Of a stretch of DNA of 64,000 bases, positions 1,302 to 40,773 are shown piece by piece (positions within the stretch are counted from its first letter, which is position 1; every line of letters begins with the position of its first letter). The notes under the pieces are model-generated. The model ran no database searches. It was not told the origin of the DNA and worked only from the letters and a program-made list of their open reading frames with translations. The stretch covers positions 256,001-320,000 of the forward strand of contig CAWJQC010000007.1 in NCBI GenBank assembly GCA_963844965.1. Direction: 5' to 3'. This DNA is from an uncultured bacterium. Its GTDB lineage: Bacteria > Patescibacteriota > Minisyncoccia > UBA6257 > 2-01-FULL-56-20. Both the position numbers and the translations under genes were made by a program.

Positions 1302-1424
1302 GGAGTGGTCGCGAATAACGCGAATGGCGGCAAATAATGCGAATAAATCTTACTTTTGTTTTTCGCGGGTATCTTTCATAATTCGCGTTATTAAATAAAA
1401 ATTCGCATTATTCGCGATTACTCC
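1302..1424. repeat. GCGAAT-type repeat-array hairpin element, copy A
   Basis: Begins ggagtggtcgcgaataacgcgaat, has several GCGAAT(AA) units, then inverted ATTCGC units, and ends ttattcgcgattactcc directly before the ATG at 1425. The two ends are reverse complements. Near-identical copies lie at 35608 and 40685. Confidence 0.7.
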
Positions 1425-3329
1425 ATGTTCTCAAAAAAGGAACAAAAAGACCTCGCTCTTGAAGAAGCGCTCCGCGACAGCGTGTCTTCGGATTTTGACG
1501 TCGTGGAGGTGCCCATCGGTGCGAAGCCGTTCCTTTATCTTGGCGGCGTGCTTGTTCTGGTCGGCCTTGTCCTTGCCGGGCGTATCCTGTATCTCAACAT
1601 TTTCGGCGCGCAGTTATACGTTTCGCAGGCGCAGGCGAATTTGAGCAGTTTGCAAAAGCTTACGGCGCCGCGCGGTTTGATCTACGACAGGCAGGGCGAT
1701 GTTCTTGCCGAAAATGTCGCCACATTCGCGGCCGTGCTTAACGCGAAAGAGTTCGCGAACCATCCGGAACTGCAGGAAAACACGTTGAGGACGATTACCG
1801 ACGTTCTCGGAATTTCCGCCGATGATGTGCGCGGTTTGATGAACAGCGGCTCGTCTTCTCCCGCGTCCGTTGTCCTAGCCGACAATCTTATGCAGGGTGA
1901 GATAGTTGGAATTGACGGCGCGAACCTTCCGACACTTTCGGTTGAGCGCGAATTCGGAAGAAAATACAACGAGGGTCCGGTTTTTGCGTCCGTCGTGGGT
2001 TATGTAGGGAGGCCGAGCGCCAATGACCTCAAAACCAACCCCGACCTTGCGGGCGATGACTTTGTCGGCAAGGCGGGAGTCGAGGCGTTTCACGACAAAT
2101 CTTTAAGGGGCAGTGACGGAACGGTGGAGACCATCAGGGATTCCAAGGGGCAGGTTTTGAGCGAGAAAAAGAAAAGTGATCCAGCGCCAGGCGAGCCGCT
2201 TCGTCTCACCATTGACGGAGATTTTCAGAGATACTTTTATTACCGTCTGGAGGAGGGACTTCAGTCGTTGGGGAAGCGGATAGGCGCGGGAATTGCCATT
2301 GATCCGCGGAACGGTGAGGTGCTCGCGCTCGTGAACTTGCCGTCGTTTGACCCAAATGTTCTCTCGGGTCCTGGCAATAATGACATAAAGACCGAGATCT
2401 TTAATTCCGCGGACAAACCGCTTTTCAATCGCGCAGTTAGCGGCTACTACAGTCCCGGTTCAACCATCAAGCCCTTGGTCGGCGTCGCGGCATTGGCGGA
2501 AGGCGTGATTGACCCGCAACGGGAAATTTTTTCGCCGGGCTACATGGATTTTCCGAATCCTTACAACGCCAGCGAGACAACCCGTTATTTGGACTGGCGC
2601 TATCAGGGAAACGTGAATTTGGCTTCGGCGATTGCCCAGTCGTCGGACGTTTACTTTTATCTTGTCGGCGGCGGTTCGCCTCCCGAAATTTCGCCGCCGG
2701 AAATTCTGAACGGTGGCGGCACCGTAAAGGGACTGGGCATCAGCCGGCTAATTGACTGGTGGGAAAAATTCAATTTGGGCAAACCGACCGGCGTTGATCT
2801 GCCCGGAGAAGGCGACGGTTTCCTGCCGTCACCGGATTGGAAAGAAGCGAAAACGAAGAAACCGTGGCTTTTGGGCGATACATATAATGTTTCCATCGGC
2901 CAGGGCGATTTGCTTCTGACGCCGATTCAGCTTCTTTCCTACACGGACGCGATAGCGAACGGCGGAAAAATTTACGAGCCGGTTTTGAATTTGGACTCGC
3001 GCCATCCGAGTACGACCGCTGACCTTTCCGCGTTCCAGCCGGAAATAAAAGAAGTGCAGAAGGGGATGGTGGAGGGCGTTACGTCGCCTCTCGGCACGGC
3101 GCACTCCTTGGCGGACCTTGGTTTCTCTGTCGGCGCGAAGACTGGCAGCGCGCAGGTGATGAACAACGCCCAGGAGAACGCGTGGTTTGTTGGCTACACG
3201 CCTACCGATAATCCGCAGATTGCCATTTTGGTTCTTGTGGAAAATTCCAAAGAAGGAAGTTTGAACGCCGTGCCGATAGCGAAAGATATCTTAAATTGGT
3301 ATTATTGGAATAGGATTTATAAACCATGA
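1425..3329 (+). CDS. Penicillin-binding protein 2 / FtsI-family peptidoglycan D,D-transpeptidase
   Basis: N-terminal TM segment, PBP dimerisation region, active-site STIK (SxxK), SSD-like and KTGS(A) motifs read from the translation; 634 aa. Confidence 0.8.
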   Translation: MFSKKEQKDLALEEALRDSVSSDFDVVEVPIGAKPFLYLGGVLVLVGLVLAGRILYLNIFGAQLYVSQAQANLSSLQKLTAPRGLIYDRQGDVLAENVATFAAVLNAKEFANHPELQENTLRTITDVLGISADDVRGLMNSGSSSPASVVLADNLMQGEIVGIDGANLPTLSVEREFGRKYNEGPVFASVVGYVGRPSANDLKTNPDLAGDDFVGKAGVEAFHDKSLRGSDGTVETIRDSKGQVLSEKKKSDPAPGEPLRLTIDGDFQRYFYYRLEEGLQSLGKRIGAGIAIDPRNGEVLALVNLPSFDPNVLSGPGNNDIKTEIFNSADKPLFNRAVSGYYSPGSTIKPLVGVAALAEGVIDPQREIFSPGYMDFPNPYNASETTRYLDWRYQGNVNLASAIAQSSDVYFYLVGGGSPPEISPPEILNGGGTVKGLGISRLIDWWEKFNLGKPTGVDLPGEGDGFLPSPDWKEAKTKKPWLLGDTYNVSIGQGDLLLTPIQLLSYTDAIANGGKIYEPVLNLDSRHPSTTADLSAFQPEIKEVQKGMVEGVTSPLGTAHSLADLGFSVGAKTGSAQVMNNAQENAWFVGYTPTDNPQIAILVLVENSKEGSLNAVPIAKDILNWYYWNRIYKP

Positions 3330-4315
3330 GTGAACTACGCCAAGACCCTGTTTCCGGCGACTGGATTATTATGGCGCCGGAACGTGGCGGCAGACCGCAC
3401 AATATCGGCGGCAAAAAAGCGGCACGGAAGCCATCGCCCAAAAAAGACTGCCCATTTGAGAATCCGAAGAAATCAGGCAACTGGCCGCCGATTTTGAGCT
3501 GGCCGAACGAAAAGAAATGGCAAATACTTCTGACCCCCAACAAGTTTCCCGCTCTGTCGCATGCCGACGGCTGCGCCCAAAACTTTAGAGTCGGTCCCTA
3601 CGATTTGAAAAATGGAACTGGCAGACATGACCTTTTGATAACGCGCGACCATCGCAAGAATTTCGGCGACCTCGCGCCCGCCATGGCAACGAAAGTTTTG
3701 GAAGTGCTTCAGGCGCGTTACAGAATGCTCGCCCGCGACAAGTGTCTTCTATATACATCATCGTTTTTCAATTACGGACCGACAGCCGGAGCGTCAATTT
3801 TCCATCCGCATTACCAGGTTATAACTTTGCCGATTCTCCCTTCCGATTTCAAACATTCACTTCTCGGACTTGAGGCGTATTACGAGAAGAATCATCGTTG
3901 CGCTCATTGCGTGATGCTTGCCGAGGAGTTGAGGTCAAAGACTAGAATAATAGACCAGAATAGATTCGCCGCGCTCGTTTCCCCGTTCGTTCCGCGCGAG
4001 GCCTATGAGATAAGAGTTTTCCCGAAGCGCCATCTGCCACGTTTTGAAAATACTTCTTTGCACGAGTTGCGGGATATGGCGGCGATGCTCCAGTCGGGCA
4101 TCAAGCGCCTCAAGCGGTATCTCGGCGACCCGGATTTTAATTTTTTCATCCACACCGCGCCACTCAAGAACCGCACCCGCTACCGCTACTATCATTGGCA
4201 CATAGAGATTGTTCCCAAGATCACCATTATCGGGGGGTTCGAGCTTTCCACTGGCGTTGACATTAACGTCGTTGACCCAGAGAACGCGGCGGCAGTTTTA
4301 CGCGGGGAAAAATAA
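3326..4315 (+). CDS. GalT-like HIT-superfamily nucleotidyltransferase (galactose-1-phosphate uridylyltransferase-like)
   Basis: HPHYQ (His-x-His-type) motif, Cys/His cluster (CAHC) and GalT-like length; the ATGA start overlaps the stop of the upstream PBP gene. Confidence 0.55.
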   Translation: MSELRQDPVSGDWIIMAPERGGRPHNIGGKKAARKPSPKKDCPFENPKKSGNWPPILSWPNEKKWQILLTPNKFPALSHADGCAQNFRVGPYDLKNGTGRHDLLITRDHRKNFGDLAPAMATKVLEVLQARYRMLARDKCLLYTSSFFNYGPTAGASIFHPHYQVITLPILPSDFKHSLLGLEAYYEKNHRCAHCVMLAEELRSKTRIIDQNRFAALVSPFVPREAYEIRVFPKRHLPRFENTSLHELRDMAAMLQSGIKRLKRYLGDPDFNFFIHTAPLKNRTRYRYYHWHIEIVPKITIIGGFELSTGVDINVVDPENAAAVLRGEK

Positions 4316-4403
4316 GCCGGAATTTCGCAGCCACATTTTTCTATGCTAAAAAAGATTTTAAAATCCAGGATAGTCAGCTCTATTTTTTTGCTGGATCCTG
4401 CTT

Positions 4404-4685
4404 TTGGTTCTGGGCGGAACGATCTGGGTGTATTTCGCCCTGCGTCATATCGCGCCGCCGCTGATTCTTCATTTCAACAACCTCGCCGGGATTAACCAGA
4501 CCGGGAATTTGGCGGATTTATTGGAGATCGGTGCCACCGGCATTGTTTTCGTGCTCGTGAACTTTTTTATAGCGTTGGAGCTGGAGAATAGGGACGCGTT
4601 CGGCGGCAAGCTTCTGGCCGCGGCGACCCTATTCCTCGCGATTTTGATTTTCATTGGCTTTGCCGCTATAATTTCTGCAAATTAG
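4404..4685 (+). CDS. Small hydrophobic membrane protein, hypothetical
   Basis: 93-aa ORF with two or three TM-like segments. Confidence 0.35.
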
Positions 4686-4699
4686 TATCGATGCTAATA
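4684..4699. repeat. Left 16-bp inverted repeat flanking the GxxExxY gene
   Basis: agtatcgatgctaata; its reverse complement tattagcatcgatac(c) lies at 5160..5175. Confidence 0.7.
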
Positions 4700-4704
4700 T
4701 ACGA

Positions 4705-5112
4705 ATGAGTACTAATGATACGAATAACCGAAACAGGAAACTTATTTATCCGGAATTATCATATACGATTGTCGGCATTTGCTTTGAAGTTCATAATCAG
4801 CTCGGGAGATTTGAGAGGGAAAAACAATACGGGGATTTGACAGAAAAGAAGTTAAAAGAGTCCGGTATTTCATACGAGCGCGAACGCGAGATTTTGAAAA
4901 CGGGAAACCGGGTTGATTTTTTGATTGATGGTAAGATCATCTTAGAAGTCAAAGCAAGAAAACTTGTTTTAAAAGATGATTTTTATCAACTGCAGCGCTA
5001 TCTTCAGGCTGCTGGTAAAAAGCTCGGTTTGATAGTAAATTTTAGAAACCGCTATTTGAAACCAATCAGGATTATCCGCATTGATACTGACGCAAGGAAA
5101 AAATTTCAATAA
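4705..5112 (+). CDS. GxxExxY-family (PDDEXK_3) PD-(D/E)XK nuclease-fold protein
   Basis: The translation carries the family hallmarks ([44 protein letters not shown]); the gene is flanked by 16-bp inverted repeats. Confidence 0.6.
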
Positions 5113-5159
5113 CTTGCAAAAATTGTCATTATAGATTAGTATAATTAGCATCATTAGTA

Positions 5160-5175
5160 TATTAGCATCGATACC
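5160..5175. repeat. Right inverted repeat flanking the GxxExxY gene, preceded by tandem ATTAG(T/C)AT repeats
   Basis: tattagcatcgatacc; 15 of 16 positions match the reverse complement of 4684..4699. Confidence 0.7.
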
Positions 5176-5502
5176 ATGTCTAAATTTTCGATAATCGAGA
5201 CGGGAGGAAAACAATATAAAGTTTCCGCCGGTCAAAAAATTAAGGTGGAAAAACTGAACGCGGAGGCGGGCGATTCTTTTGTTTTTGACAAGGTTTTGCT
5301 TGTTGTGGATGGCGAAAAAGTTGAGATTGGCACGCCATATATCGCCGGCGCGAAAGTGGAAGCCAAAGTTTTGCGCCAAGCCCGCGAACGCAAGAAAATC
5401 GTTTTCAAATACCATTCCAAAACGAGATATAAAAAAGAAAAAAGGACACCGACAACATTTTACGGAGGTGTTAGTGGAGAAAATTTGATTTGTTATAATT
5501 AA
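5176..5502 (+). CDS. rplU: 50S ribosomal protein L21
   Basis: N-terminus FSIIETGGKQYKVSAGQKIKVEKL matches the L21 signature; 108 aa. Confidence 0.9.
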   Translation: MSKFSIIETGGKQYKVSAGQKIKVEKLNAEAGDSFVFDKVLLVVDGEKVEIGTPYIAGAKVEAKVLRQARERKKIVFKYHSKTRYKKEKRTPTTFYGGVSGENLICYN

Positions 5503-5545
5503 TCGCAGTAATCTTTATACGGGCCGCTTTCGGGGGTGATGTGGC

Positions 5546-5800
5546 ATGTCCGAACTTGTCTATGACCTGGAGGTCGCTTTTGTGCTGCTCGTGATAGCAG
5601 CTTTGTTCTTTGCCGCCGCTACTATTTTTTTGGCTTATGCCTTACCGAGCCACACCGCAAGAATGCATAAAAAAGTCAACGGCTGGTTGCAGAACGATAG
5701 AGTTCTCGGGTCAATTTCCGCCCACTATCGTTTTTTGGAAAAAAAATTGAAGGATTTTTCCCGCACCATTCATTTGCCAAGAATGCCTCGCCGCAAATGA
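5546..5800 (+). CDS. Small membrane protein, hypothetical (not L27)
   Basis: 84-aa ORF with one TM segment; occupies the position where rpmA is often found but has no L27 motif. Confidence 0.35.
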   Translation: MSELVYDLEVAFVLLVIAALFFAAATIFLAYALPSHTARMHKKVNGWLQNDRVLGSISAHYRFLEKKLKDFSRTIHLPRMPRRK

Positions 5801-13112: not shown

Positions 13113-13784
13113 TTAAACCGTGGCATTTTTTCGAACCCGTTCTTGTTTTTTGAGACAATCAACGAGATATTTTACGATCTTTTCGCAATTTTCTTCCGGA
13201 GTGGTGCTCACAAAAACTGCGACATTATGCTTCCTGGCGTCATCAATAAGGAAGTTTTGCTGTATCTTTTCAATGCGCCAGATCTTTTCGCTTAGCCAAG
13301 CCTTCTGAACGCCATGGCGCCTGTCGAATTTCTTCGCCAGAAGTTCCTTGTGGTGAGCGTGGTTTCTGGCGATAAGCAAGATGTGGAATACCCTTGCTTC
13401 CGGGATGTTTTGGTATAGGGACGGGAGAAGATGCACTCCTTCAATCATTGTGTTTTCCCCGACTCTAATGATATTTTTTCGGATAATCGCCCTGGCGCCT
13501 CTCCGCAACGCGCGGCAGTGGCCGAGAAAACCTTTCGCGAAATTGCTTTCTGTGGACTTGCCGAACAATCTCCAGCGGTTATGGCTTCTGCCTTGTATAA
13601 TCGGCCGGCGGTCGTAAAGGCGCATGACGTCGCGTATTTCGTCCATGCCGATGACGGTGGCGAACCTGAGGGCAGCGGCGAGCAGCACGGCCGTTGACGA
13701 TTTTCTGGTCCCGGCCATGCCGCAGATGAGGATCAATACCGGCCTCTTTCCTTCCGTGAATTTCTTCACGAGCCATTTGTTCAT
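13113..13784 (-). CDS. P-loop NTPase / small-molecule kinase-like protein
   Basis: Walker A ICGMAGTRKSST near the N-terminus; 223 aa; last gene of the MiaB-like/HD operon. Confidence 0.4.
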   Translation of the reverse strand: MNKWLVKKFTEGKRPVLILICGMAGTRKSSTAVLLAAALRFATVIGMDEIRDVMRLYDRRPIIQGRSHNRWRLFGKSTESNFAKGFLGHCRALRRGARAIIRKNIIRVGENTMIEGVHLLPSLYQNIPEARVFHILLIARNHAHHKELLAKKFDRRHGVQKAWLSEKIWRIEKIQQNFLIDDARKHNVAVFVSTTPEENCEKIVKYLVDCLKKQERVRKNATV

Positions 13785-14419
13785 TTATGCCTCCTTTCGC
13801 TTAGCGGTGCATCTTTTCAATTTTCGCAAGACCATCGCTAGTGCGCAATAAGCATTTACATCGGTCTTTTTCGCGAGTTCAAGGAACGCTTCCGCTTCTT
13901 TTATCCAGCGGGGAAATTTAGCGCGATTGGGATTTGATCGCGGTATGAGCGGGGCGCGCCTTATCGTGTCATACTTGTCGGCAATGCCAAGGAGTTTTAT
14001 TCCCCGGCTTCCGTTGCGGACAAAATCATTGAAGAACCGCGCCTTGAGGATTTTCTTCTCGGCTTCGGTTTCGTGGGCTTCTGGCATCCGAGTTACTCCT
14101 TTAACGATATCGTGTGTTTCGGGACGAATAGGTGCTCAATCGTTTCCAGCGCAACGCCGCCGTCTTCCACGACGTCGTGCAGAAGGGCGGCGGCAAGCAG
14201 ATGGTAATCGCGGACACGGAACGTTTCAAAGAGAAAATTGAACACGGCGAGCGGATGGACGAAGTACGGATATGATTCAATTCCGAATTTTTTCTGCCCC
14301 CGATGCGCCGCTTCAGCCATGTTGTATGCCCGCCAGAGCGCCGATTGTTCGGCGCAGGTAAGTTGCCTGGCGTTCTTCATGAATCGGCGCTTTGCGGCTT
14401 TGAGCGATGGGTAACGCAT
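13785..14419 (-). CDS. SpoT/RelA-type HD-domain (p)ppGpp hydrolase-like small protein, split by a 1-nt frameshift near 14090
   Basis: HRGQ...YFVHPLAV...LLHDVVEDGG motifs in ORF 14093..14419; the adjacent ORF 13785..14087 continues the HD fold (KLLGIADKYDT resembles LIKLADRLHNMRT) in another frame. Confidence 0.5.
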
Positions 14420-14440
14420 GCGGCCTCCTTTCTTTGCGGG

Positions 14441-15640
14441 CTAAAACCCGAAGTGATTTAGAAGAATTGCTTTAAGATCCATTTTCCGCAACGATTGCCA
14501 GAAAATCTTATGCGAAAGCTTTTTCTTTCTGCGGATTTTTTCTTCCTCGGTCACTTTGCCGCCCATTGAGTGCGCGAGAGTGCCGTGGCGGTCGCTATAG
14601 GGGAAGATTTTCACCTTGTTGAAGTGGAATTTATCTAAGACTGCGGAGGTCGCAAGAAAGTCCGCTTCGGTTTCGCCCGGAAATCCGACGATGATGTGGG
14701 TGTTGATCTTGAGGCGAGGATTTGCCTCCCGGATGCGCTCAAGAAGAGGGAGCACGCGTTCCATGGCATACGGCCGCTGCATCAGGTTGAGAATCCTTTG
14801 ACTGCCGCTTTCAATGGGAATGGTGATGAAGATAATTTTTGGCGAGGAAAGCGCCGCGAAAAGCCGTTTTTCGTATCTAACAAGCGCGGCTGGATTGAAT
14901 TCGGTGAGCACCAATCTGAAGTCCTGTTTCATCGCGAGGATTTGCTCTAGAAGATCGGCGATGCTCTCGCCGCGGTCTTGGCCGAACATTCCTACGTCAT
15001 CTGCGTTGAGGGAAAAAATACAGTATCCTTCCTCAAGACCGCACAGGAATTCACGCATAATATCCGCTGTTGGCTTTGATACCAGTTTGCCGCGGGCAAG
15101 CCGTTCGGCGCAGTAGGTACAGGTTCCGAGGCATCCTTCTGAAATTTTGAGATGGAAGACTTTTTCCTTGTCGTAGAGATACGTAAAGTAATCGTCGCGC
15201 AGGAACACGCGGTTCAGCAGCCGCATCAATCTTCCGCCGCGAGACCACTCCCTATGCACTTTGTGACCTATCTTGCGTTCGGCACGACTGAGATTGAACA
15301 TATTTATCGCTTCTTCCAGATTTCGGCCGGAGAAAAATCTCCCTTCGGCATTTATCTCGCGCAATCTTTGAGGATTGATGTCGGGCAGACAGCCGAAAAC
15401 GACCACCTCCTGGTTTTTTCGTTTGGCGTTGAGGAGCTTCGTGATCTCGCTGACGGCTTTTTCTTCGGCGCTTTCCATGAACGCGCAGCTGTTGATGAGG
15501 ATGATATCTGCTTCGTTCGCGCTTGGCGCTTCAATCCAGTTGTTCGCGCTGAGCAGTTCTTTCACGTCCTCTCCACAGAGCATCAGTCGGACGCACACAT
15601 TCTCGTTGACCAGGTGAAATTTCCGCGGAAGTTTGCCCAT
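14441..15640 (-). CDS. MiaB/RimO-family radical SAM methylthiotransferase-like protein
   Basis: N-terminal MTTase domain (ILINSCAF), radical SAM CLGTCTYC (Cx3Cx2C); 399 aa. Confidence 0.65.
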   Translation of the reverse strand: MGKLPRKFHLVNENVCVRLMLCGEDVKELLSANNWIEAPSANEADIILINSCAFMESAEEKAVSEITKLLNAKRKNQEVVVFGCLPDINPQRLREINAEGRFFSGRNLEEAINMFNLSRAERKIGHKVHREWSRGGRLMRLLNRVFLRDDYFTYLYDKEKVFHLKISEGCLGTCTYCAERLARGKLVSKPTADIMREFLCGLEEGYCIFSLNADDVGMFGQDRGESIADLLEQILAMKQDFRLVLTEFNPAALVRYEKRLFAALSSPKIIFITIPIESGSQRILNLMQRPYAMERVLPLLERIREANPRLKINTHIIVGFPGETEADFLATSAVLDKFHFNKVKIFPYSDRHGTLAHSMGGKVTEEEKIRRKKKLSHKIFWQSLRKMDLKAILLNHFGF

Positions 15641-20468: not shown

Positions 20469-22491
20469 ATGAAGAATACTTCCTGGACGGTGGGTGTTTT
20501 GGTGGTTTGTGTTTCTGTAAGTTTGCTTGCGGCGTCAAGCGCTTACGCGGCTACGCCGACGCTTTCGCTCGCGGTGACGAGCGGGGATTCTGTGCAGATA
20601 AACGTGATCGGCGATTCGAATTTTCCGGTCGTGTTTTATTACAATGTCGGCAGTTCTTCCGGAACGAACACAACGACGCTCGGTAGTACGAACTCCAGCG
20701 GCGTTTTTTCAACAACGATAAGCACGGGCGCGTACGCGATAAACTCCAGCTATCCGGTATATGTCGTAGTGGATGGTCAGCAGTCAGCTACACAAACCTG
20801 GCCTTACGGCGCCAGTACTTCCTCGGGTACAAGCGGTACGCCAGTACTCAGCCAGACAAGCGTTACGGTCGGTATCGGGCAGTCAGTGACCGTGACTTCG
20901 CAGGGAGGCAGCGGCATCTATTTGGTGTCCAATTCCAATTCTTCTGTGGCCGCCGCTTACGTATCTGGGACACAGGTTGTTGTTACCGGAAGCCAGCTGG
21001 GTTCAACGACAATGACAATCTGTTATGTGGGTACCGCTTCCAATTGCACGAATTTGTATGTGAATGTGCAGAGCGGAACCGTGCAGGCGCTCACGTTCAG
21101 CCCGAACAACATTTCCTTATCGGTCGGTGGCAGTCAATCTGTGACCATAAGCGGCGGGAGTGGAACGTATAGTTTGTCTTCCAATTCAAACTCCAGCGCC
21201 GTTTCCGTGAATTTATCGGGAAACACGCTTACGGTGACAGCCATCGCGGCCGGGAGCGCCAATATAACGGCATGCGACACGTCGGGAAATTGTAGTGTCT
21301 TATATGTGACGGTGGGCGGAAGCTCAACAAGCGGTTCCTTGTCTTTCAGCCAGACGAATCCGTCTATAGCGGTCGGACAGGTTATAAGCGTGAGTGTTTA
21401 CGGCGGAAGCGGCTATTACGTGTCCGCTAACACGAACTCCGGCATCGCCTCGCAAACGCTGAATGGCAACACACTCTCAATCTCTGGTCTGGCAGCCGGA
21501 GCGACGACGATCACCGTATGTTCGGCGGTGAACGGCTGCGGCTACCTTTATGTCACCGTCGGTTCGTCATCCGGCACGAGCCAGACAATTACTTTTAGCC
21601 AGACGAATCCGTCCATAGCGGTCGGACAGGTTATAAGCGTGAGTGTTTACGGCGGGAGCGGGTATTACGTAACGGGCAACACGAATTCCAGTGTCGCTTC
21701 GCAAGCCCTTAATGGGAGCATACTTTCCATCTCCGGATTGGCAAGTGGCGCCACGACTATCACGGTATGTTCCGTGGCTAATGGCTGTGGTTCGATTTAC
21801 GTCACGGTCGGTTCGTCGTCGGGCTCGAGTATGGCCATCACCTTTGGCACGACCAATCCCACTATTACAACGGGGCAAAGTATGAACATCTCGCTTTCTG
21901 GCGGTTCCGGTTATTTCGTTTCGTCTAATCCAAGTACGAATATTGCGCAGGCAAGCGTTACGGGCAATACGCTTGCGCTCTATGGCGTGGGCGTCGGCTC
22001 CGATTCGCTTACGATTTGCGCGAGTTCCGGCGGCTGCAACACGCTTTACGTCACAGCTGACAAGCGTGACGACCGTTCCGACCACCACGCAGACACAGCA
22101 AACAGTTGTTTCGAGCGCTTGGATAACCGAGATCCAGACAATGCAGACCCAGCTCACAAATATCCTCGCCCAAATCCAAACTTTACAAAGTAACCTTGCA
22201 AATCTTCTTACGCAAGTTACCGCCGGCGCGCAAAGTCCAAGCGTAAGTGGCACGACGACCGCGCAATCCAGCGGCTATAAATTCTACAGCCCGCTCTCGC
22301 TTGGCTCGAGCGGCGCAGACGTCACGGCATTGCAGACCCTCTTGGCCGCGAAGGGATATTACACTGGTTCCATAACCGGTTACTACGGTACGGCGACGAT
22401 GGACGCGGTGATGGAATACCAGACGGCTCATGGTATCACGCCGCTCGGCAACGTGGGTCCCGCCACCCGCGCGGCGCTGAACGCGGAATAA
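20469..22491 (+). CDS. Large secreted Ser/Thr/Gly-rich tandem-repeat surface protein with a C-terminal peptidoglycan-binding domain; frameshift near 22055
   Basis: Signal peptide; at least 5 tandem ~85-aa repeats (SFSQTNPSIAVGQVISVSVYGGSGYYV...CS..NGCG.LYVTVG). The C-terminal PG_binding_1-like region (GADVTALQTLLAAKGYYTGSITGYYG) is in the overlapping ORF 21943..22491. Confidence 0.55.
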
Positions 22492-25859: not shown

Positions 25860-25938
25860 CCGCGGAGCCATTTTTCATTTTCCGCCCGCACTGCCTACCT
25901 TCTCTAATTTTTGCCAAAGGCGGACAAGCCTGCCTGCC
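25860..25938. repeat. ~80-bp intergenic direct repeat, copy 1
   Basis: ccgcggagccatttttcattttccgc...ccttctctaattt..caaaggcggacaagcctgcctgcc; about 85 percent identical to 26476..26554. Confidence 0.6.
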
Positions 25939-26475: not shown

Positions 26476-26554
26476 CCGCGGAGCCGTTTTCATTTTCCGC
26501 TCATGCCGTTTACCTTCTCTAATTTCCGTCAAAGGCGGACAAGTCTGCCTGCCC
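26476..26554. repeat. ~80-bp intergenic direct repeat, copy 2
   Basis: ccgcggagccgttttcattttccgc...ccttctctaatttccgtcaaaggcggacaagtctgcctgcc. Confidence 0.6.
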
Positions 26555-33906: not shown

Positions 33907-35505
33907 ATGCCCAACAAGCTTTACTTCGGAGATAATCTTGATATCCTCCGCGACAAAATCGCCGACAATTCGGTTGATTTGATTTACCTTGACCCACCGT
34001 TCAACTCCAATCGCAACTACAACGTACTTTTTAAAGAGGGATTGCAGGATAGTCCAGCACAAGTTCAAGCATTTGAGGATAGCTGGCACTGGACGCGCGA
34101 AGCGCAGGCGACTTTTGAGGAACTAATGGGTGTGCGGCCATCAAAGACAAAAATCAACGCCGACATCGTTAATTTAGCGCAGGCGTTAGAGAAGCTAGTC
34201 GGCCATAACGATATGCTGGCTTATCTCACAATGATGACGATTCGCTTAATCGAACTAAGGCGTGTTCTGAAGCCAACCGGAAGTATTTACCTTCATTGCG
34301 ACCCAACCGCCAGCCATTATTTGAAAGTTGTGTTGGACACCGTTTTTGGGAAACAAAATTTTTTGAATGAAGTCATTTGGAGATACGAAGGACCTCAATC
34401 GCCAAGCTTAATTAAATTTGCGACGAAGCACGATATCGTTCTTCGTTATGCGAGTGATATAAAATCTTGCAAAGCCGTCGAATTATATTATTTTGAAAAG
34501 ATATCAGTTGAAGATGCAAATTTTAAGCAGGATGAGAATGGGCGTTATTTCTATACTCTACCCAAAGGAGACTATACCGAAGAAAGCATAAAAAGATTAG
34601 AACAAGAAGGTCGTATATTCAGGACCTCTAAGGGAACAGTGCGTATAAAGTATTTTGTAGAAAAAACTTCGGATGGGAACTTTTTGCGTAAAAAGAAAAT
34701 ACCAGACGTTTGGGACGACATACCTTCGCTTGGGCTTACTGCCCAATCGAAAGAAGTTCTTGGTTATCCGACCCAAAAACCCGAAGCACTTTTGGAAAGA
34801 ATAATCAGAGCATCTTCAAAAGAAGGCGACTTAGTTCTTGACCCATTCTGCGGTTGTGGCACGACGGTCTCCGTCGCTGAGCGGCTAAAAAGGAATTGGG
34901 TTGGTATTGATATTACGATGCTTGCTATTAATTTGATTCGCCATCGCCTCGCGAAACAATATCCGAACATAGAAATTTTAGTGGATGGCAGGCCAAAAGA
35001 TATTCCCGCAGCCGGGGCGCTTTTCAAAAAAGACCCGTTTGAATTTGAATACTGGGCACTGGATTTAGTTGACGCTGTTCCTGCTCAAAGCAAAACCAAA
35101 GAAAATATGCGTGGCGCAGACAAGGGGATTGACGGCGTGATTAACTTTGTCAGAGACATAAAAAATGGCGAGCAAGTTTACGGTAAGTTGGTTGTTCAGG
35201 TGAAGGGTGGTGCGGTTCACCGCGACCAAATTGCTACGCTTAAGGGTGATATAGAGCGTGAGCGGGCCGACGGCGGAATTTTTGTGACGCTCGAGAAGCC
35301 AACCCAGCCAATGAAAGAAGAGGCAGTAAGCACCGGAAGTTATAAGGTGGGTTTTGGCAAAGGAGAATACCCGAAAATTCAGATAGTAACCATAGAGGAT
35401 TTATTAGATAATAAGAAGCCTGAAGTTCCTATTGCCGCCCTGCCTTATTATAAAGAGGCCAAAGTTGCTAAATCCGAAAACAGGTCAAAAAAATTAGGAA
35501 TATAG
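33907..35505 (+). CDS. Site-specific DNA methyltransferase (N6-adenine/N4-cytosine, beta class), orphan
   Basis: Motif IV LIYLDPPFNS precedes motif I DPFCGCGTT; 532 aa with an extra C-terminal domain; no cognate endonuclease adjacent. Confidence 0.75.
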   Translation: MPNKLYFGDNLDILRDKIADNSVDLIYLDPPFNSNRNYNVLFKEGLQDSPAQVQAFEDSWHWTREAQATFEELMGVRPSKTKINADIVNLAQALEKLVGHNDMLAYLTMMTIRLIELRRVLKPTGSIYLHCDPTASHYLKVVLDTVFGKQNFLNEVIWRYEGPQSPSLIKFATKHDIVLRYASDIKSCKAVELYYFEKISVEDANFKQDENGRYFYTLPKGDYTEESIKRLEQEGRIFRTSKGTVRIKYFVEKTSDGNFLRKKKIPDVWDDIPSLGLTAQSKEVLGYPTQKPEALLERIIRASSKEGDLVLDPFCGCGTTVSVAERLKRNWVGIDITMLAINLIRHRLAKQYPNIEILVDGRPKDIPAAGALFKKDPFEFEYWALDLVDAVPAQSKTKENMRGADKGIDGVINFVRDIKNGEQVYGKLVVQVKGGAVHRDQIATLKGDIERERADGGIFVTLEKPTQPMKEEAVSTGSYKVGFGKGEYPKIQIVTIEDLLDNKKPEVPIAALPYYKEAKVAKSENRSKKLGI

Positions 35506-35607
35506 GCGGTACTTGACACCGTTATCCACTCGTATATACTTAAACTATTCCAAAGACCGCAGGGCATCCGCCGATGAGGCGGCATAGGACCCGCGATAGG
35601 AATCGTT

Positions 35608-35697
35608 GGAGTAATCGCTAATAATGCGAATATCGGCAAATAATGCAAATAAAATTCGCATTATTTGAAAAAGATTAGCATTATTCGCGGACACTCC
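35608..35697. repeat. GCGAAT-type repeat-array hairpin element, copy B
   Basis: ggagtaatcgctaataatgcgaat...attcgcattattcgcggacactcc; same architecture and ends as copies A and C. Confidence 0.7.
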
Positions 35698-35735
35698 TCG
35701 ATGGCGGCCTTTGGAGAAAAGGTCGTTTTTTATTC

Positions 35736-35820
35736 CTTACGAAAATACGAAAACATACGAAATTACGAAAAAGAGGTTTGAGCCCTTTCGTACGTTCGTA
35801 CAATTTCGTACTTTCGTAAG
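35736..35820. repeat. TACGAAA-type repeat-array hairpin element
   Basis: Four direct TACGAAA-like units, loop, four inverted TTTCGTA units with matching 4-6-4 spacing; directly upstream of rplJ. Confidence 0.65.
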
Positions 35821-35828
35821 AGTTAGCG

Positions 35829-36353
35829 ATGAAATCGCGAACGCAAAAACAGGAAGAGTTAAAAAGGGGGAAAGAGCTTTTAGACAAGTCGCAAGTTTTG
35901 GTTTTCACGGACTTCACCAAAGTCAAAGCCGAGGACTTGCGGCGGATGCGGCGCGAACTCAATAAGGTGGGAGCGAATTTTCTTGTCATCAAGAAGCGGC
36001 TCTTGGCGCTGCTTCTCAAGGAGCGGAAGGTGGACTTTGACACGAAGCAGTTCAAGTTGTCCATCGGCACAATTTTTTCGGAAGGGGACATGGAAAAAAT
36101 CAGCGGGCCGGTCTATAAGTTCTTCTCGGCATTGGAAATTTCCGAGGGCAAGGAGAAAGACATGTGGATAAAGCATATTCTCGGCGGTTATGATCTCAAG
36201 AATAAAAACTTGATAGACGCGCTGGAGGTCGTTACCATCGGCAAACTGCCGCCGCGCGAAGTGCTTCTCGGCCAGCTGTTGGGCACGCTCGTCGCGCCGC
36301 TAAGGTCGTTCATGTATATCTTGAGCGAGAAATCCAAAGTAGCGGCAAAATAA
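35829..36353 (+). CDS. rplJ: 50S ribosomal protein L10
   Basis: L10 family N-terminus and position immediately upstream of rplL. Confidence 0.8.
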   Translation: MKSRTQKQEELKRGKELLDKSQVLVFTDFTKVKAEDLRRMRRELNKVGANFLVIKKRLLALLLKERKVDFDTKQFKLSIGTIFSEGDMEKISGPVYKFFSALEISEGKEKDMWIKHILGGYDLKNKNLIDALEVVTIGKLPPREVLLGQLLGTLVAPLRSFMYILSEKSKVAAK

Positions 36354-36427: not shown

Positions 36428-36793
36428 AACATGGCAAAATTTGACGAATTAATATCTAAAATAGAAAAATTAACCGTGAGCGAGCTCGCGGAACTGGTGA
36501 AAGAACTTGAAACAAAGTTTGGCATTACGGCCGCCGCTCCGGTCGCGGCTGGCGGAGCAGCGGCCGCTCCCGCGGAAGAGAAAACGAGTTTCAGCGTTCT
36601 TCTCAAAGCCGCCGGAGCGCAGAAGCTCAACGTCATCAAAGCGGTCCGCGAAGTGACAACGCTTGGCCTTAAGGAAGCGAAAGATTTGGTTGAAGGCGCG
36701 CCGAAAATGGTGAAAGAGAACGTCAAGAAAGAGGAAGCGGACGAAGCAAAAAAGAAACTGGAAGCCGCAGGCGCAACCGTGGAGATTCAATAG
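36428..36793 (+). CDS. rplL: 50S ribosomal protein L7/L12
   Basis: [31 protein letters not shown], Ala-rich hinge, and C-terminal domain ending EAAGATVEI. Confidence 0.9.
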
Positions 36794-36827
36794 AAGGTGG
36801 AAGTCACAGACACAATTTTGGGATTCA

Positions 36828-36860
36828 ATGGAGATAGACCCCGACCTTGCGTCGGGGTCT
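36828..36860 (+). terminator. Rho-independent terminator after rplL
   Basis: gaccccgac cttgc gtcggggtc hairpin followed by taaggttttt. Confidence 0.6.
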
Positions 36861-36951
36861 AAGGTTTTTGAGAAACCTTGCCAGCCGACATTTTATCTGC
36901 TACCCTGGTTTTAGTTCTTCTTTGGCACGTATATTCGGTCGGAGGTATAGC

Positions 36952-37398
36952 ATGAAAGGACCATATTCGCCGGTTGACAGAGCGTCTGTCGTTTCTTTGT
37001 TGATATTGAATAATATCTACCGCAATCAATGCGAGGAGAACACGATACGAAAAATTTCCGGTATTTTGCACGATCTTCGAGAGAAGGGTGTGCACATTAC
37101 AGACCTGGGGCTTGATAGAAGGATTGGGGGTGACTATTACTCCGAATTTGTGGATTCTACTGTTTACCTCCTCAATTGGAAGCGTTCCACGACGAGCGTG
37201 AGCGGTTTCAACCTGAACCAGGAAGGAATTAAGTTCTGCGGCAGCAATGTGCTTGATGAATTGAATGGTCCGCACAAAGCAGAATTTCTGGAAATCGCGA
37301 GAATGCTCAAAATTGACATGCCGGAGTTGCTCAAAAACTTGCGCAATTCAACGGCCGAGCAGGAGGAATTATTTCCCAAAAACGTGCCCCGAGGTTGA
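36952..37398 (+). CDS. Hypothetical protein
   Basis: About 148 aa from the MKGPYS start; no motif recognised. Confidence 0.35.
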   Translation: MKGPYSPVDRASVVSLLILNNIYRNQCEENTIRKISGILHDLREKGVHITDLGLDRRIGGDYYSEFVDSTVYLLNWKRSTTSVSGFNLNQEGIKFCGSNVLDELNGPHKAEFLEIARMLKIDMPELLKNLRNSTAEQEELFPKNVPRG

Positions 37399-37477
37399 AT
37401 CCGGGGCATTTTTGTTTTAGAATGTTCCCGTAGGCGCGTTTAGGGCCGATGTCGGCCAATAAATTAATAATAAACAA

Positions 37478-37550
37478 GGGCGTTTAGCTCAGTGGTAGAG
37501 CGTTCGCTTCACATGCGAAAGGCCGCTGGTCCGATCCCAGCAACGCCCAC
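37478..37550 (+). tRNA. tRNA-Val (anticodon CAC)
   Basis: Cloverleaf folded by hand: acceptor GGGCGTT/AACGCCC, D stem GCTC/GAGC, anticodon stem TTCGC/GCGAA with loop TTCACAT, T stem GCTGG/CCAGC with TCCGATC loop, discriminator A; CCA not encoded. Confidence 0.8.
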
Positions 37551-37718
37551 ATTGGTTGAGCATCAAATTTTTTTATAATCGGTTTTTTTTTGGGTTCGTT
37601 ACCGGAATTTTTAACCGAATGGACGGTGGCCGGCTGAAATTTTCCGTTTCGGAAGTTTTCCGAGTTATGCACAGAATTCACTTTTTATTTTTGAAAATAC
37701 TTTTATAATTATTTGTAA

Positions 37719-39037
37719 ATGGCAAACTCTGCGAATCACAACGGAGAAAATTATAAAAAAAAGTTTTTATTTGTGTCTTTGGAAAGTTTGAGCGGGGACC
37801 TGGCGTGGAACGTTTTGAAAGAAGGAAACCAGGTCAAAATTTATATAGAGAGAAAAGAGGATGTTGACGTCTACAATGGTTTTCTGGAAAAAGTTGACGA
37901 CTGGAAGAAATTCGTTGACTGGGCGGACGTGGTCGTTTTTGACGATGTTGAGTTCGGCGGGTTCGCCGACAAGCTGAGGCAAAAAGGTAAGCTGGTCATC
38001 GGCGGCTCGGAATACACCGACCGTCTTGAGATTGATAGGGAGTTCGGGCAGACGGAACTCAAAAAATACGGAGTGAGCACCCTGCCGAGCTGGCAATTTT
38101 CCGATTACGACGAGGCGATAAAATTCATACGCCAGAATCGCGACAGGTACGTTTTCAAACCGAGCGGAAATACGCCGAGCGACGGGAAAGGTTTGCTTTT
38201 TCTCGGGCAGGACGAGGACGGCCACGACATGATAGAACTTCTGGAGGGGAACAAGGACGTCTGGAAAAAGAAAGCGCCAGTGTTCCTTCTGCAGAAATTC
38301 ATTTCTGGAGTTGAAGTCGCGGTCGGCGCGTTCTTCAACGGCTCGGATTTTATCTATCCGATAAATATCAATTTTGAACACAAGCGGGTTTTTCCCGGGA
38401 ACATCGGTCCCTTTGCCGGCGAGATGGGAACTTTAATGTTCTGGGATTCGCCGAACGTGCTTTTCCACGAGACGCTTGAAAAATTATTGCCGGCTCTAAA
38501 GGAATCAAAGTACGTGGGGTATGCGGATATCAATTGCATCGTGAACGGCCGCGGCATTTATCCTTTGGAATGGACGTGCCGTTTCGGTACCCGACGATCC
38601 AGATACAGTCGGAGGGGATCTTAATGCCGGCGAGCGAGTGGTTGTGGCGCCTCACGAAGGGCGAGAATTTTGAACTTAAAACGAAGCGAGGTTTTCAGGT
38701 GGGAATGAGAATTCTCGTGCCCACGTATCTCACACGCGACAACGATCCGGAAGTTGAGGTCTACAGGGACCTCGCCGTGGCTTTCAAAAACCCGGAAAAT
38801 CGCGAAGGCATTCATATTGAGGACATAAAGAACGACAAAGGAGTGTGGCGTATCGCCGGAACGAGCGGCTGCGTGCTTGTAGTGACCGGAACCGGGACAA
38901 CCGTGGAAGAAGCGAGAAGGGTTATGTACAACAGAGCGAAGAATATAATGATACCCGGTATGTTTTACAGGACAGATATCGGTTTAAGCTGGGGCTCGGA
39001 CAGCGATAAACTTCAAACCTGGAGGTATTTGGATTGA
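37719..39037 (+). CDS. PurD-like ATP-grasp ligase (phosphoribosylamine-glycine ligase-like), split by a frameshift near 38590
   Basis: ORFs 37719..38624 and 38534..39037 together give PLEWTCRFG|YPTIQ, matching the PurD LEFNxRFGDPETQ region; one missing t in a tt run; the N-terminus lacks the canonical GGREHA, so the assignment is tentative. Confidence 0.45.
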
Positions 39038-39113
39038 TAAAAGCTTGATAGTTGATAATCTGTGGATATCTGACGGCCTCGCTTGATGATTTGTCTTGTA
39101 AAATAAGGATTCT

Positions 39114-39146
39114 TTCGCCGCTTCGGCGGCGATTTTTTGTTTTTGA
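39114..39146 (+). terminator. Rho-independent terminator
   Basis: cgccgcttcggcggcg hairpin followed by attttttgttttt. Confidence 0.6.
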
Positions 39147-39155
39147 CACGCTTCG

Positions 39156-39206
39156 GCGGTGGTGTATCGTTAAATGAAAGTGGTGAATTGTGGATAAAGC
39201 TGGGGA
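39156..39206 (+). promoter_or_regulatory. Candidate MraZ operator (GTGG direct repeats at ~10-bp spacing) and mraZ promoter
   Basis: GTGGTG at 39159 and 39180, GTGGA at 39190, TGGGG at 39201; the last three are spaced 10-11 bp apart, as in known MraZ boxes. Confidence 0.45.
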
Positions 39207-39244
39207 TAAATGCCACTTTCTGTGCAGAACTTTCCTTCAAACCA

Positions 39245-39676
39245 ATGCTACTCGGCGAATATCAACACAATTTGGATTCCAAAGGTCGGGTGGCAGTTCC
39301 GGCCAAATTCAAAGAAAAACTTGCGGCCGGCGCCATCATTACGCGCGGGTTGGATAACTGCCTGTTTGTTTTCGCGTCCAAGGAGTGGGATGTCTTGGCG
39401 CAGAAATTGGTGGCTTTGCCTCTCGCTCAGGCGAATTCGCGGGCGTTCGTGCGGCTGATGCTCGCGGGCGCGATGGACGCGACGCTGGACAATCAGGGCC
39501 GCATATTGATCCCGGATTACTTGCGGAAGTACGCCGACCTTAAGAAGCAGGTGATAATCGCGGGTTTATACAACCGCGTGGAGGTTTGGGACGCCGAGAA
39601 GTGGAGCGAGTATAAGAAGAAAACGGAGGGAGCGTCCGAGGAAATAGCGGAAAAGCTGGGTGAGCTCGGTATATAA
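39245..39676 (+). CDS. mraZ: Transcriptional regulator MraZ
   Basis: MLLGEYQHNLDSKGRVAVPAKF and a second DxxGR repeat (LDNQGRILIP) characteristic of MraZ. Confidence 0.85.
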   Translation: MLLGEYQHNLDSKGRVAVPAKFKEKLAAGAIITRGLDNCLFVFASKEWDVLAQKLVALPLAQANSRAFVRLMLAGAMDATLDNQGRILIPDYLRKYADLKKQVIIAGLYNRVEVWDAEKWSEYKKKTEGASEEIAEKLGELGI

Positions 39677-39782
39677 ATTTCTAATTCCTAATTATTCTAA
39701 TTGACCTAAGGAATGACCAATGAATAAATTTTTGAAAATTGGGAGTTTTTTAGAAATTAGAAATTAGATCAATTAGAAATTC
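39676..39782. repeat. CTAATT-type repeat-array hairpin element
   Basis: tttctaattcctaattattctaattgacc ... tttttagaaattagaaattagatcaattagaaattc; 3-4 direct CTAATT units and 3-4 inverted AATTAG units, ending at the rsmH ATG. Confidence 0.65.
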
Positions 39783-40691
39783 ATGCACCACCATCCGGTT
39801 CTTTTAAAAGAAATCATAAAATTTTTAGATCCGAAACCCGGCGAATTCATTGTTGACGGCACGGTTGACGGAGGAGGACACGGCGCCGAAATTTTTGAAA
39901 AGATTTTACCGAATGGAAGACTTTTGGGCGTAGACCTGGATGCCGATCTCCTGGAAAAAGCTTCGCGGGCAGTTTCCGCGAAAGTCAAAAGCCGGAAATC
40001 AAATATCAACAGCAATTTGATTTTGGTTCGGGGCAACTACGCCGACCTACCGGATATTTTGGAAGAAAAAAAGTTGCCGAAGGCCGACGGTTTGCTTCTG
40101 GATCTGGGATTTTCCTCCGAACAATTGGAGAACGCCGAAAAAAGGGGATTCAGCTTTGAAAAAAATGAGCCGCTTTTGATGACCTACAGCGCCGGGCGGA
40201 AGCCCGTCAAAGAAATTCTCACGGAACTTGACGCCAAGGAGCTTGCGAAAATCATCTTTGAACTGAGCGGTGAGAAGTTCGCGATGCGGATAGCGCGGGC
40301 GATAAAAGAACGGGGGCGGACGAGAGCAGTAGAGACAAGCGGTGAGCTCGCGGAAGCGGTCCGGGGCGCGGTGCCCAAAAATTATGAGCGCGGCCGCATT
40401 GATCCCGCGACGAGAACTTTTCAGGCGCTGCGGATTTACGCGAACGACGAACTAGGGAATCTTAAAAAAGTTTTGGACAGATTGGGAGAAATTCTGGAAC
40501 CGGGCGGGAGAGTGGTGATTATAAGTTTCCATTCGCTTGAGGATCGAATAGTGAAGGATAATTTTCGGAAGCTGGAGGAATCCGGAGAACTCCGGATTTT
40601 GACGAAGAAGCCGGTTCGCCCCGCGGAAGAGGAAATTTTGAAAAATCCGCGCAGCCGCTCAGCTAAACTGCGCGCCGCTATCATGGAGTAA
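39783..40691 (+). CDS. rsmH: 16S rRNA (cytosine1402-N4)-methyltransferase RsmH
   Basis: HHPVLLKEII...VDGTVDGGGH N-terminus and dcw position after mraZ. Confidence 0.85.
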   Translation: MHHHPVLLKEIIKFLDPKPGEFIVDGTVDGGGHGAEIFEKILPNGRLLGVDLDADLLEKASRAVSAKVKSRKSNINSNLILVRGNYADLPDILEEKKLPKADGLLLDLGFSSEQLENAEKRGFSFEKNEPLLMTYSAGRKPVKEILTELDAKELAKIIFELSGEKFAMRIARAIKERGRTRAVETSGELAEAVRGAVPKNYERGRIDPATRTFQALRIYANDELGNLKKVLDRLGEILEPGGRVVIISFHSLEDRIVKDNFRKLEESGELRILTKKPVRPAEEEILKNPRSRSAKLRAAIME

Positions 40692-40773
40692 TCGCGAATA
40701 ACGCGAATGATAGCAAATAACGCGAATAAAATTCGCATTATTCAATAAAAATTAGCATTATTCGCGAATACTC
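40685..40773. repeat. GCGAAT-type repeat-array hairpin element, copy C
   Basis: ggagtaatcgcgaataacgcgaat...attcgcattattc...attagcattattcgcgaatactc; overlaps the rsmH stop and ends 2 nt before the ftsL ATG. Confidence 0.7.

Follow-up and report, generated by a model that had tools for sequence, protein, structure and literature searches.

The window analysed here, a 64-kb stretch of the Patescibacteria contig CAWJQC010000007.1, carries next to several of its genes, such as those for PBP2, RplJ, RsmH and FtsL, a set of hairpins in which a direct array of short units is followed by the same array in inverted form. Three of them share the unit GCGAAT, two have other units, and a longer element encloses an open reading frame (ORF) of the GxxExxY/PDDEXK_3 nuclease family between comparable arms. 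The hairpins are probably ORF-less, non-autonomous members of selfish palindromic cassettes that encode such a nuclease or a sister cargo. The features concerned are listed below, and copy counts for the genome itself cover the window alone.

1302-1424, no strand: GCGAAT copy 1, an ORF-less hairpin of 123 nt with a loop of ~35 nt, running from GGAGTGGTCGCG to CGCGATTACTCC; fold -49.9 kcal/mol, z -7.2
35608-35697, no strand: GCGAAT copy 2, 90 nt, inside the rplJ leader; z -5.7
40685-40774, no strand: GCGAAT copy 3, 90 nt, in the rsmH-ftsL spacer; z -6.6
35736-35820, no strand: element of the TACGAAW family (the TACGAAA hairpin), four units in direct and four in inverted orientation, the spacers matching; z -6.8
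39672-39785, no strand: CTAATT/AATTAG hairpin, occupying the whole mraZ-rsmH spacer; z -4.9 (z -8.3 with mononucleotide shuffles)
4685-5174, plus strand: full cassette of a sister family, from the stop TAG of the upstream ORF (4683-4685) to 1 nt before the rplU ATG (5176)
44060-44153, no strand: candidate further member, an AT-rich direct-then-inverted array of AAAATNN units just before tRNA-Glu (44157)

The five main hairpins, which a sequence-only reading of this DNA had described, were found in place when the sequence was read directly, and the TACGAAA and CTAATT hairpins do share the architecture of the GCGAAT copies, as had been claimed. The five fold with z-scores of -4.9 to -7.2 (200 dinucleotide shuffles per hairpin), no shuffle of any of them folding as well, and they rank at the top of a window-wide local-fold z-score scan together with two LOOT RNAs and a terminator. 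The LOOT RNAs (Rfam RF03000; 33724-33847 and 55931-56052; 84 and 58 bits versus a gathering score of 46.4) both lie in long intergenic regions. All three GCGAAT copies begin with GGAGT(A/G)(A/G)TCGC and end with ACTC(C/T), and copy 2 shares 84% identity with copy 3 over their 90 nt. Moreover, the 16-mer CGCGAATAAYGCGAAT, with up to three mismatches, occurs 12 times in the window versus 2.7 expected, a count that none of 100 shuffles reached. Eleven of these 12 matches fall inside the three GCGAAT elements, with two direct and then two inverted sites per element (three in copy 1). The degenerate GCGAAT units were overlooked by a detector of exact 5-mer arrays.

The GCGAAT copies end 0, 3 and 1 nt before an ATG, within the 0-3 nt originally given. 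Copy 1, which starts with AAGGAG, directly adjoins the PBP2 ATG at 1425. Copy 3 leaves 1 nt before the ftsL ATG at 40776, and the rsmH stop TAA (40689-40691) lies within its first 7 nt, where it is provided by the GAG-TAA end of the element. Copy 2 is located downstream of a promoter at 35513-35540, and the nearest ATG, at 35701, 3 nt further on, had been read as the start of a short upstream ORF. Its counterpart in the rplJ leader of a relative (L004; such L-numbers denote loci of relatives and metagenome contigs in the comparison) is a conserved TCAATGG stretch, in an alignment that is only suggestive; the ATG at 35701 is probably not a gene start, and copy 2 would then not abut a real one. 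The TACGAAA hairpin ends 8 nt before the rplJ ATG at 35829. In the CTAATT hairpin, the stem has the mraZ stop TAA (39674-39676) at its 5' base and the rsmH AUG (39783-39785) at its 3' base, 0 nt being left to the ATG, and in the predicted fold this AUG is paired with UAU at 39672-39674. The weaker CCGAAT/TTCGG version that had been proposed after tRNA-Val (37598-37665) folds no better than its shuffles (z 0.01) and was dropped. The array at 44060-44153 is a weak candidate only, its fold being not significant (z -1.0); a solo arm lies 1.4 kb upstream (42733-42759) and matches part of the array with 89% identity.

The longest element, the cassette at 4685-5174, was absent from the sequence-only reading. 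Its 24-nt ends are 96% complementary and extend into arrays of GCTAAT, ACGAAT and ACTAAT units, with a left arm from 4685 to ~4727 and a right arm at ~5126-5174. The ORF between them (4705-5112) belongs to the GxxExxY/PDDEXK_3 family (PF13366, 2.8e-19; TIGR04256), and its ATG and first codons (MSTNDTNN) lie in arm sequence. An orthologous cassette with 94% nucleotide identity is present at the same junction in L170, and a look-up of the window protein returned a 2-kb Logan contig as its sole match.

The GCGAAT family extends well beyond the window. When metagenome contigs were scanned once for an exact pattern that specified 23 bases of the left arm, 84 stretches matched, many of them from groundwater sets of the Hainich and Rifle type. 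This gave 100 arm occurrences including those of the window, of which 80 are distinct and 56 belong to complete elements (53 of 84-192 nt and three of 457-488 nt). The family arm is ~44 nt long and consists of four units of 9-10 nt, R-GAGTAATCGCKAATAAYGCGAAT-N4-GCAAATAAYGCKAAT, the two arms being inverted copies of each other, and conservation begins abruptly at R-GAGTAATCGC at both ends. No target-site duplication was detected among the 56 elements, the same dinucleotide occurring on both sides in 12 of them (in 5 of 56 once the boundary is moved by one base). A duplication of TA was considered in particular and rejected, TA being found on both sides in only 6 of 56 (3 of 56 with the shifted boundary).

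Copies strewn at random relative to genes would, according to the sequence-only reading, have been a simple miniature inverted-repeat transposable element (MITE). What was found is different: an ATG that opens an ORF of at least 50 codons lies within 6 nt of either element end in 47 of the 56 elements, versus 4.6% of the intergenic positions of the same contigs (p ~1e-39). Such strongly non-random placement argues for a mobile element with a very particular niche and not for a 'simple MITE'. In 35 of the 56, the near end coincides with or contains the stop of a co-directional upstream ORF, and an ATG begins 1-3 nt beyond the far end; the upstream stop typically reads TAG|GAGT, T|GA or GAG-TAA. 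Within 36 nt, the arm consensus has a stop in each of the three frames, as read from the consensus and in agreement with the observed stop offsets. Elements lie in both orientations relative to the flanking genes (19 versus 16), and the start codon was ruled out as a part of the element by the variable CAT-GAGT offset of 0 to 3 nt. The downstream genes are mainly housekeeping genes, Pfam-verified in the case of L3, L6, S3, L24, S4, S5, S7, L7/L12, SSB and an FtsE-type ABC protein, and recognised by the N-terminus only in the case of L29, L2, S11, L13, S6, L28, L18, SecY, Adk, Map, MraZ, FtsX, GroEL, ClpP and HU. All copies are in spacers between protein-coding genes or in mRNA leaders and none is in rRNA, the window itself containing no rRNA gene. 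Spacers within the operons of the window mostly measure -25 to +21 nt.

The same junction can be filled in one genome and empty in another. At rplN-rplX, an element is present in L134 and L168 and absent from L126 (TAG-CGACC-ATG) and L093; at the S8-L6 junction, one is present at L093:3639 and absent from L147 (TAA-TACACAAAT-ATG); and the junction filled at L147:325 is empty in L093. The rsmH-ftsL spacer, which holds copy 3 in the window, is empty in L001 (TAA-AA-ATG), where the conserved FtsL N-terminus MTFIQPNKN fixes the true start. As well, contig ORJL010085690.1 carries five copies in 13 kb, before rplF, rpmC, rpsC and rplB among others, and their near-identical loops indicate that ORF-less copies multiplied as such.

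The three long copies of the family (457-488 nt) carry a PF13366 ORF in the loop, with an ATG within the left-arm units and the N-terminus M-R-I-x-ANNAN. GCGAAT/GCAAAT units translate as ANNAN, and about two thirds of 47 Patescibacteria GxxExxY homologues either contain ANNAN or have M(R/Q)I at the start; in four of the 47 the C-terminus is IRII, which the right-arm ATTCGCATTATT encodes. At one orthologous junction, L114 has a 457-nt element with an intact ORF, L140 a 192-nt element, and L096 and L148 elements of 115 nt. The 192-nt copy retains only the last 26 codons of the gene, ending in AGVKLGILVYFTREGVKYRRVLNSSL and the stop, which correspond to the GxxExxY C-terminal consensus. This series indicates that gene-less hairpins arise by internal deletion. 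The active-site residues D71, E81 and K83 are invariant. An AlphaFold model (predicted local distance difference test 81) has weak, generic PD-(D/E)XK neighbours in Foldseek (lambda exonuclease, Cas4, Hjc and I-Bth0305I), none at E <= 0.001, while a PDB sequence search yielded no solved structure for GxxExxY relatives and a scan of viral contigs for such relatives gave nothing.

Solo GCGAAT left arms are also found, fused in frame to host genes, at L163:90 (KsgA-like, MRANNANK...), L120:1361 (MAANNANI...) and L142:14061 (MRIEANNAN...). Once the remainder of the element is gone, such an arm may serve the gene as a source of its start codon and perhaps of a -10 box. In L101, L116, L126, L143, L149 and L164, the left arm contains a nested 20-nt palindrome, CCTGCCTGCCGGCAGGCAGG, which is related to a 67-nt repeat of the window (25872-25938 and 26487-26553, 84% identity, terminating in GGCGGACAAGCCTGCCTGCC) and seems to be another, still smaller element with the GCGAAT element as its target.

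The architecture recurs with other units and other cargo. The TACGAAW family is present outside the window in L100, L107, L133 and, with three copies, L134, and further families of the same design have the units TCTAA/CTAAT, CAAAAT and CAATT. Two sister families enclose genes for four-helix-bundle '23S rRNA intervening-sequence proteins' (PF05635/TIGR02436; L137:712-1199 and L140:7274-7712), and at L123:1219-2349 a LAGLIDADG_3 homing-endonuclease ORF (Pfam 9e-14) lies between inverted arrays of GAATT units. Similar arrays were found in control loci from Acidobacteria and Planctomycetes (L071, L079, L045 and L029), so the architecture is not confined to Patescibacteria.

In relatives, the mraZ-rsmH and rsmH-ftsL spacers may hold stop-to-start direct-then-inverted arrays with unrelated units, namely AGCTTTT (L001), ACGTTCTAA and GAAACTT (L004), TAGCTT (L039) and AAAGTT (L012). 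Hairpins with unrelated units occupy mraZ-rsmH itself in L001, L002, L004 and L039, and the units of L014, TTAGAAATT, resemble those of the window; other relatives have spacers of 2-20 nt and no array at the two junctions. By its RsmH, the window belongs to the Patescibacteria (Paceibacteria/Liptonbacteria-like). The nearest RsmH relatives in the protein collection are only ~70% identical to the RsmH of the window, and a protein-guided scan of genome contigs gave, among the matches listed, mostly distant or non-Patescibacteria rsmH loci, which served as rough controls. Hairpins spanning from stop to start were counted in 5 of 109 Patescibacteria spacers versus 4 of 141 control spacers, numbers that are too few and rest on crude gene calls. 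The rplJ leader of L004 resembles that of the window minus copy 2 and the TACGAAA element, in an alignment that is only suggestive. A 131-nt palindrome with no unit arrays, L001:18514-18644 (z -7.2), represents another kind of stop-to-start hairpin, its ends falling exactly at a stop TGA and at the ATG that follows.

Taken together, these observations support the suggestion of a new small non-autonomous mobile element: the hairpins are multicopy, present or absent at orthologous junctions, and have arms in common with copies that carry a nuclease ORF, with a deletion intermediate between them. In the model we propose, the full cassette consists of two inverted arms of ~44 nt around a ~400-nt gene for a small PD-(D/E)XK nuclease, and internal deletion of this gene would leave hairpins of 85-135 nt. 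Their niche is the few nucleotides between a stop and the next start, or the position just upstream of the ATG of a first gene, in housekeeping operons (ribosomal proteins, division and cell wall (dcw) genes, ssb, secY and ftsEX). The arrayed hexamers may be binding sites of the cassette's own nuclease, which could move or copy full and gene-less copies in trans, in a homing-like or transposition-like manner that leaves no duplication. We only infer that the GxxExxY protein may act as the mobility enzyme. Insertion into essential operons might be tolerated since the upstream reading frame stops at once, and self-folding of the transcript would keep the upstream stop adjacent to the downstream AUG. 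Initiation independent of a Shine-Dalgarno (SD) sequence in this lineage could add to the tolerance. Downstream translation could survive via termination-reinitiation across the base of the stem or, alternatively, by removal of the stem through an RNase III-type cleavage, as with rRNA intervening sequences (IVS). The immediate stops in all frames, the self-contained stem and the ends 0-3 nt from stop or start would fit an element selected to be harmless in SD-poor coupled operons.

Several points weigh against this interpretation. The only GxxExxY gene of the window has arms unlike those of the three GCGAAT copies, and no cognate nuclease for these copies was seen within the 64 kb. The three copies differ by ~16%, and they are therefore not recent. 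Across the 56 elements, no conserved flank or target motif was found beyond R-GAGT, which, together with the missing duplication, leaves the mechanism not assignable to known transposition chemistry. The GxxExxY gene could also be a passenger that inserts into pre-existing hairpins. Arms that are conserved beyond the neighbouring coding DNA would fit a host-beneficial function as well, and the recurrence of hairpins with unrelated units at mraZ-rsmH and rsmH-ftsL could mean that the host needs 'a hairpin' there. Finally, the search pattern partly fixed the left arm, and every context statistic is built on crude ORF calls.

A bolder form of the cassette model, which we regard as unlikely as a whole, makes the cassettes the mRNA counterpart of rRNA IVS, lodged between the stop and start of essential operons in bacteria that dispense with SD sequences and have many leaderless mRNAs. 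The stem would either be cut by RNase III, giving a near-leaderless downstream cistron, or be bridged by terminating ribosomes (a 'shunt'), and the GxxExxY and four-helix-bundle proteins would recognise the hexamer arrays and copy the cassette. As to the translational context, an SD-like motif at -16 to -5 is found in only ~11 of 62 genes of the window and is strong in four; an exception to this scarcity is a minus-strand operon at 13113-15640 with AAGGAGG. TATAAT-like boxes lie 4-9 nt before the ATGs at 37719, 32563, 48152, 25965, 62715 and 57135, a spacing which suggests that many mRNAs may be leaderless.

Hairpins that serve the host as cis-regulatory RNA come next, an explanation that appears quite improbable. 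The stems would control or couple downstream translation through a split ribosome-binding site (GGAG near the AUG) or by juxtaposing stop and start, and their spread would be secondary. The sequence-only reading had proposed something close to it, a translational-control hairpin pairing a 5' GGAG with a 3' CUCC, and as a reason for the existence of the elements this finds no support. It does account for the location in transcribed leaders and intercistronic junctions abutting start codons, for the AAGGAG at the beginning of copy 1, for the rsmH AUG paired at the stem base of the CTAATT hairpin, for unrelated hairpins recurring at the same dcw junctions of relatives, and for arms conserved beyond their flanks. 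In orthologous pairs, the arms are 80-98% identical versus 67-91% for the flanking coding DNA, the loops also falling below the arms, and the outer 24 nt of the right arm, left free by the search pattern, have 83% identity over all pairs. This conservation is not of the kind that RNA pairing maintains, for no compensatory change was detected in the outer 24-bp stem: at its six variable positions, Watson-Crick pairs are about as frequent as in column shuffles (positions 0, 1 and 20) or less frequent (6, 11 and 17). Divergence among copies with no compensation, which the sequence-only reading had named as speaking against its own finding, thus does occur. The arms have conserved deviations of their own, with T opposite C at position 11 in most copies and G opposite A at position 20. 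Arm conservation with no covariation bears the signature of sequence-specific recognition or concerted evolution and not of an RNA structure maintained by compensation. Moreover, sense folds are not more stable than antisense folds (14 versus 25) and both orientations are used; the same element stands before dozens of unrelated genes and is absent from orthologous junctions of related genomes; some copies contain a nuclease ORF; and a search of Rfam gave no match to the elements at gathering score, the only hits being chance miRNA precursors far below threshold. The scarcity of SD sequences in the genome further weakens the idea of a split SD.

It is very improbable that the elements are portable expression modules, in which an arm would provide a -10 box (AATAAT), ~7 nt and an ATG, yielding leaderless transcripts and persisting by driving its neighbours. 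The cargo ORF of L114 does begin 7 nt after AATAAT, the solo left arms of L163, L120 and L142 are fused in frame to host genes, and elsewhere in the window a -10-like box precedes the ATG of further genes by 4-9 nt. A promoter and terminator consensus scan, however, found no sigma-70-like site inside the elements of the window, and the best outward candidate, TTCGCA-17/18-CATTAT, matches at 8 of 12 positions only and lies 13 nt from the ATG. In addition, most copies are internal to operons, where a promoter is not needed.

The elements might instead act at the DNA level, as arrays of sites bound by a nucleoid protein, a global regulator or another host protein, similar to operators or to the repetitive extragenic palindromes and bacterial interspersed mosaic elements (REP/BIME) that bind integration host factor or gyrase; this we consider highly improbable. 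The sequence-only reading had suggested operator arrays for a dimeric regulator, and as a description of the arms that idea may stand: the units lie 9-10 nt apart, about one helical turn, and each arm has its own sequence-specific conservation with no covariation. The binder is more likely to be the cassette's own nuclease than a host regulator, though. No candidate host regulator is linked to the elements, the unit sequence is wholly different between families of the same architecture, both ends of the cargo ORF are encoded by arm sequence (ANNAN at the start, IRII at the end), and elements are gained and lost between relatives.

That the elements are not mobile at all, replication slippage or strand-switching having repeatedly built quasi-palindromes in AT-rich spacers, is scarcely credible: the unit-array construction itself and the different units at the same junction in different lineages could be so explained, but the GCGAAT arms are ~83% identical across unrelated loci and many metagenomes, which makes an independent origin impossible, and the idea, already contradicted for GCGAAT and TACGAAW, could hold only for singletons such as L002:10904-10937.

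Other features of the window are noted briefly. The ORF at 33907-35505, directly upstream of the rplJ promoter, encodes an N6/N4 DNA methylase domain fused with an Mrr-type restriction endonuclease domain. In the ORF at 20469-22193, a 249-nt unit is tandemly duplicated at 21343-21840 with 79-80% identity, giving an internal protein repeat. Two inverted stretches ~10 kb apart, 47393-47765 and 57429-57803, are 73-77% complementary and lie in the ORFs 46997-47957 (minus strand) and 57135-59063 (plus strand), which are probably diverged paralogues.

The function of GxxExxY/PDDEXK_3 (PF13366) has been given as 'Unknown' (PMC3424549). Two very large families, GxxExxY/PDDEXK_3 and the four-helix-bundle '23S rRNA IVS proteins', for which no cellular role is established outside the Avd branch of PF05635, gain from these cassettes a context that can be tested, both occurring here as cargo of palindromic unit-array cassettes that decay to gene-less hairpins. 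If the mRNA counterpart of rRNA IVS were to hold true, it would be the first biological role for both. Streamlined Patescibacteria genomes evidently tolerate insertions of ~90 nt in ribosomal-protein and cell-division operons, placed with nucleotide exactness between stop and start, which raises the question of how the downstream cistron is translated where SD sequences are barely used. The elements would also account for many odd N-termini (ANNAN...), odd C-termini (...IRII) and mis-called starts in annotations of bacteria of the candidate phyla radiation (CPR), and they could serve as strain markers. Full-text searches did not turn up any account of unit-array inverted repeats framing genes for GxxExxY or IVS proteins, or of hairpin elements that span from stop to start in CPR bacteria.

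Among known systems, the TIGR (tandem interspaced guide RNA) arrays of CPR bacteria consist of tandem units with box C/D motifs and spacer pairs and adjoin a tas (Nop-domain) gene (bioRxiv 10.64898/2026.09.09.750476). The present elements share with them the hairpin-forming repeats of low conservation in Patescibacteria. They were rejected as a TIGR array, the hairpins being solitary or unrelated neighbours of one another and not arranged in tandem, with no box C/D-like motifs evident on reading, and they adjoin PBP2, rplJ, mraZ, rsmH and ftsL (the scan for a Nop domain did not cover the window exhaustively).

REP/BIME elements, which are linked to REP-associated tyrosine transposases (RAYT), are likewise extragenic, palindromic, multicopy and often located within operons. 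Unlike REP elements (20-40 nt, 5' GTAG, Y1 transposase), the present ones are ~90 nt or longer, start with R-GAGTAATCGC, and the gene linked to them encodes a PD-(D/E)XK protein; the ORFs associated with them belong to PF13366 and PF05635, no search having been aimed at a RAYT gene.

Free-standing homing endonuclease genes (seg and mob of T-even phages, or the PD-(D/E)XK enzyme I-Bth0305I) provide another parallel, in that a nuclease ORF sits in the junction of conserved genes, is found in some relatives and missing from others, leaves no duplication and degenerates toward loss. Unlike the cassettes, these genes have no long inverted repeats and no multicopy gene-less derivatives at many junctions.

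The Correia elements or Neisseria miniature insertion sequences (NEMIS) and the enterobacterial repetitive intergenic consensus (ERIC) elements are hairpin-forming MITEs that are co-transcribed with flanking genes, and Correia elements duplicate a TA target. Similar to these, the present elements are short, non-coding and multicopy, have terminal inverted repeats, lie in the intergenic regions of operons, form RNA hairpins and show insertion polymorphism. Of the features of a MITE, 84-192 nt of non-coding sequence with ~44-nt arms, multiple copies and filled and empty junctions are there, whereas a target-site duplication is missing. The copies in which the same arms flank the GxxExxY ORF, connected to the gene-less ones by a deletion intermediate, would be a candidate parent if the protein acts as a transposase. 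The present elements differ from Correia elements in this lack of a duplication, in ORF-bearing copies that encode a 130-aa nuclease and not a DDE transposase, and in a far stricter placement at start codons (0-3 nt).

To our knowledge, arms made of short-unit arrays have not been described for the IVS of 23S rRNA, in other respects the closest known parallel. Both are selfish insertions of ~100-450 nt with terminal inverted repeats that form a long stem, a loop that is empty or holds a small decaying ORF, a sporadic distribution and horizontal gain. IVS are inserted in 23S rRNA, at helices 25 and 45, and RNase III excises them, whereas the present elements lie between protein-coding genes and have, in the main family, a PD-(D/E)XK nuclease (PF13366) as cargo. 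In Salmonella, Leptospira and Coxiella, the IVS is a stem of terminal inverted repeats with an optional small ORF, which is removed by RNase III (PMC4990558). The IVS ORF family itself, the four-helix-bundle PF05635, is the cargo of sister cassettes here, and the analogy as a whole suggests that the present elements may have a similar fate at the RNA level.

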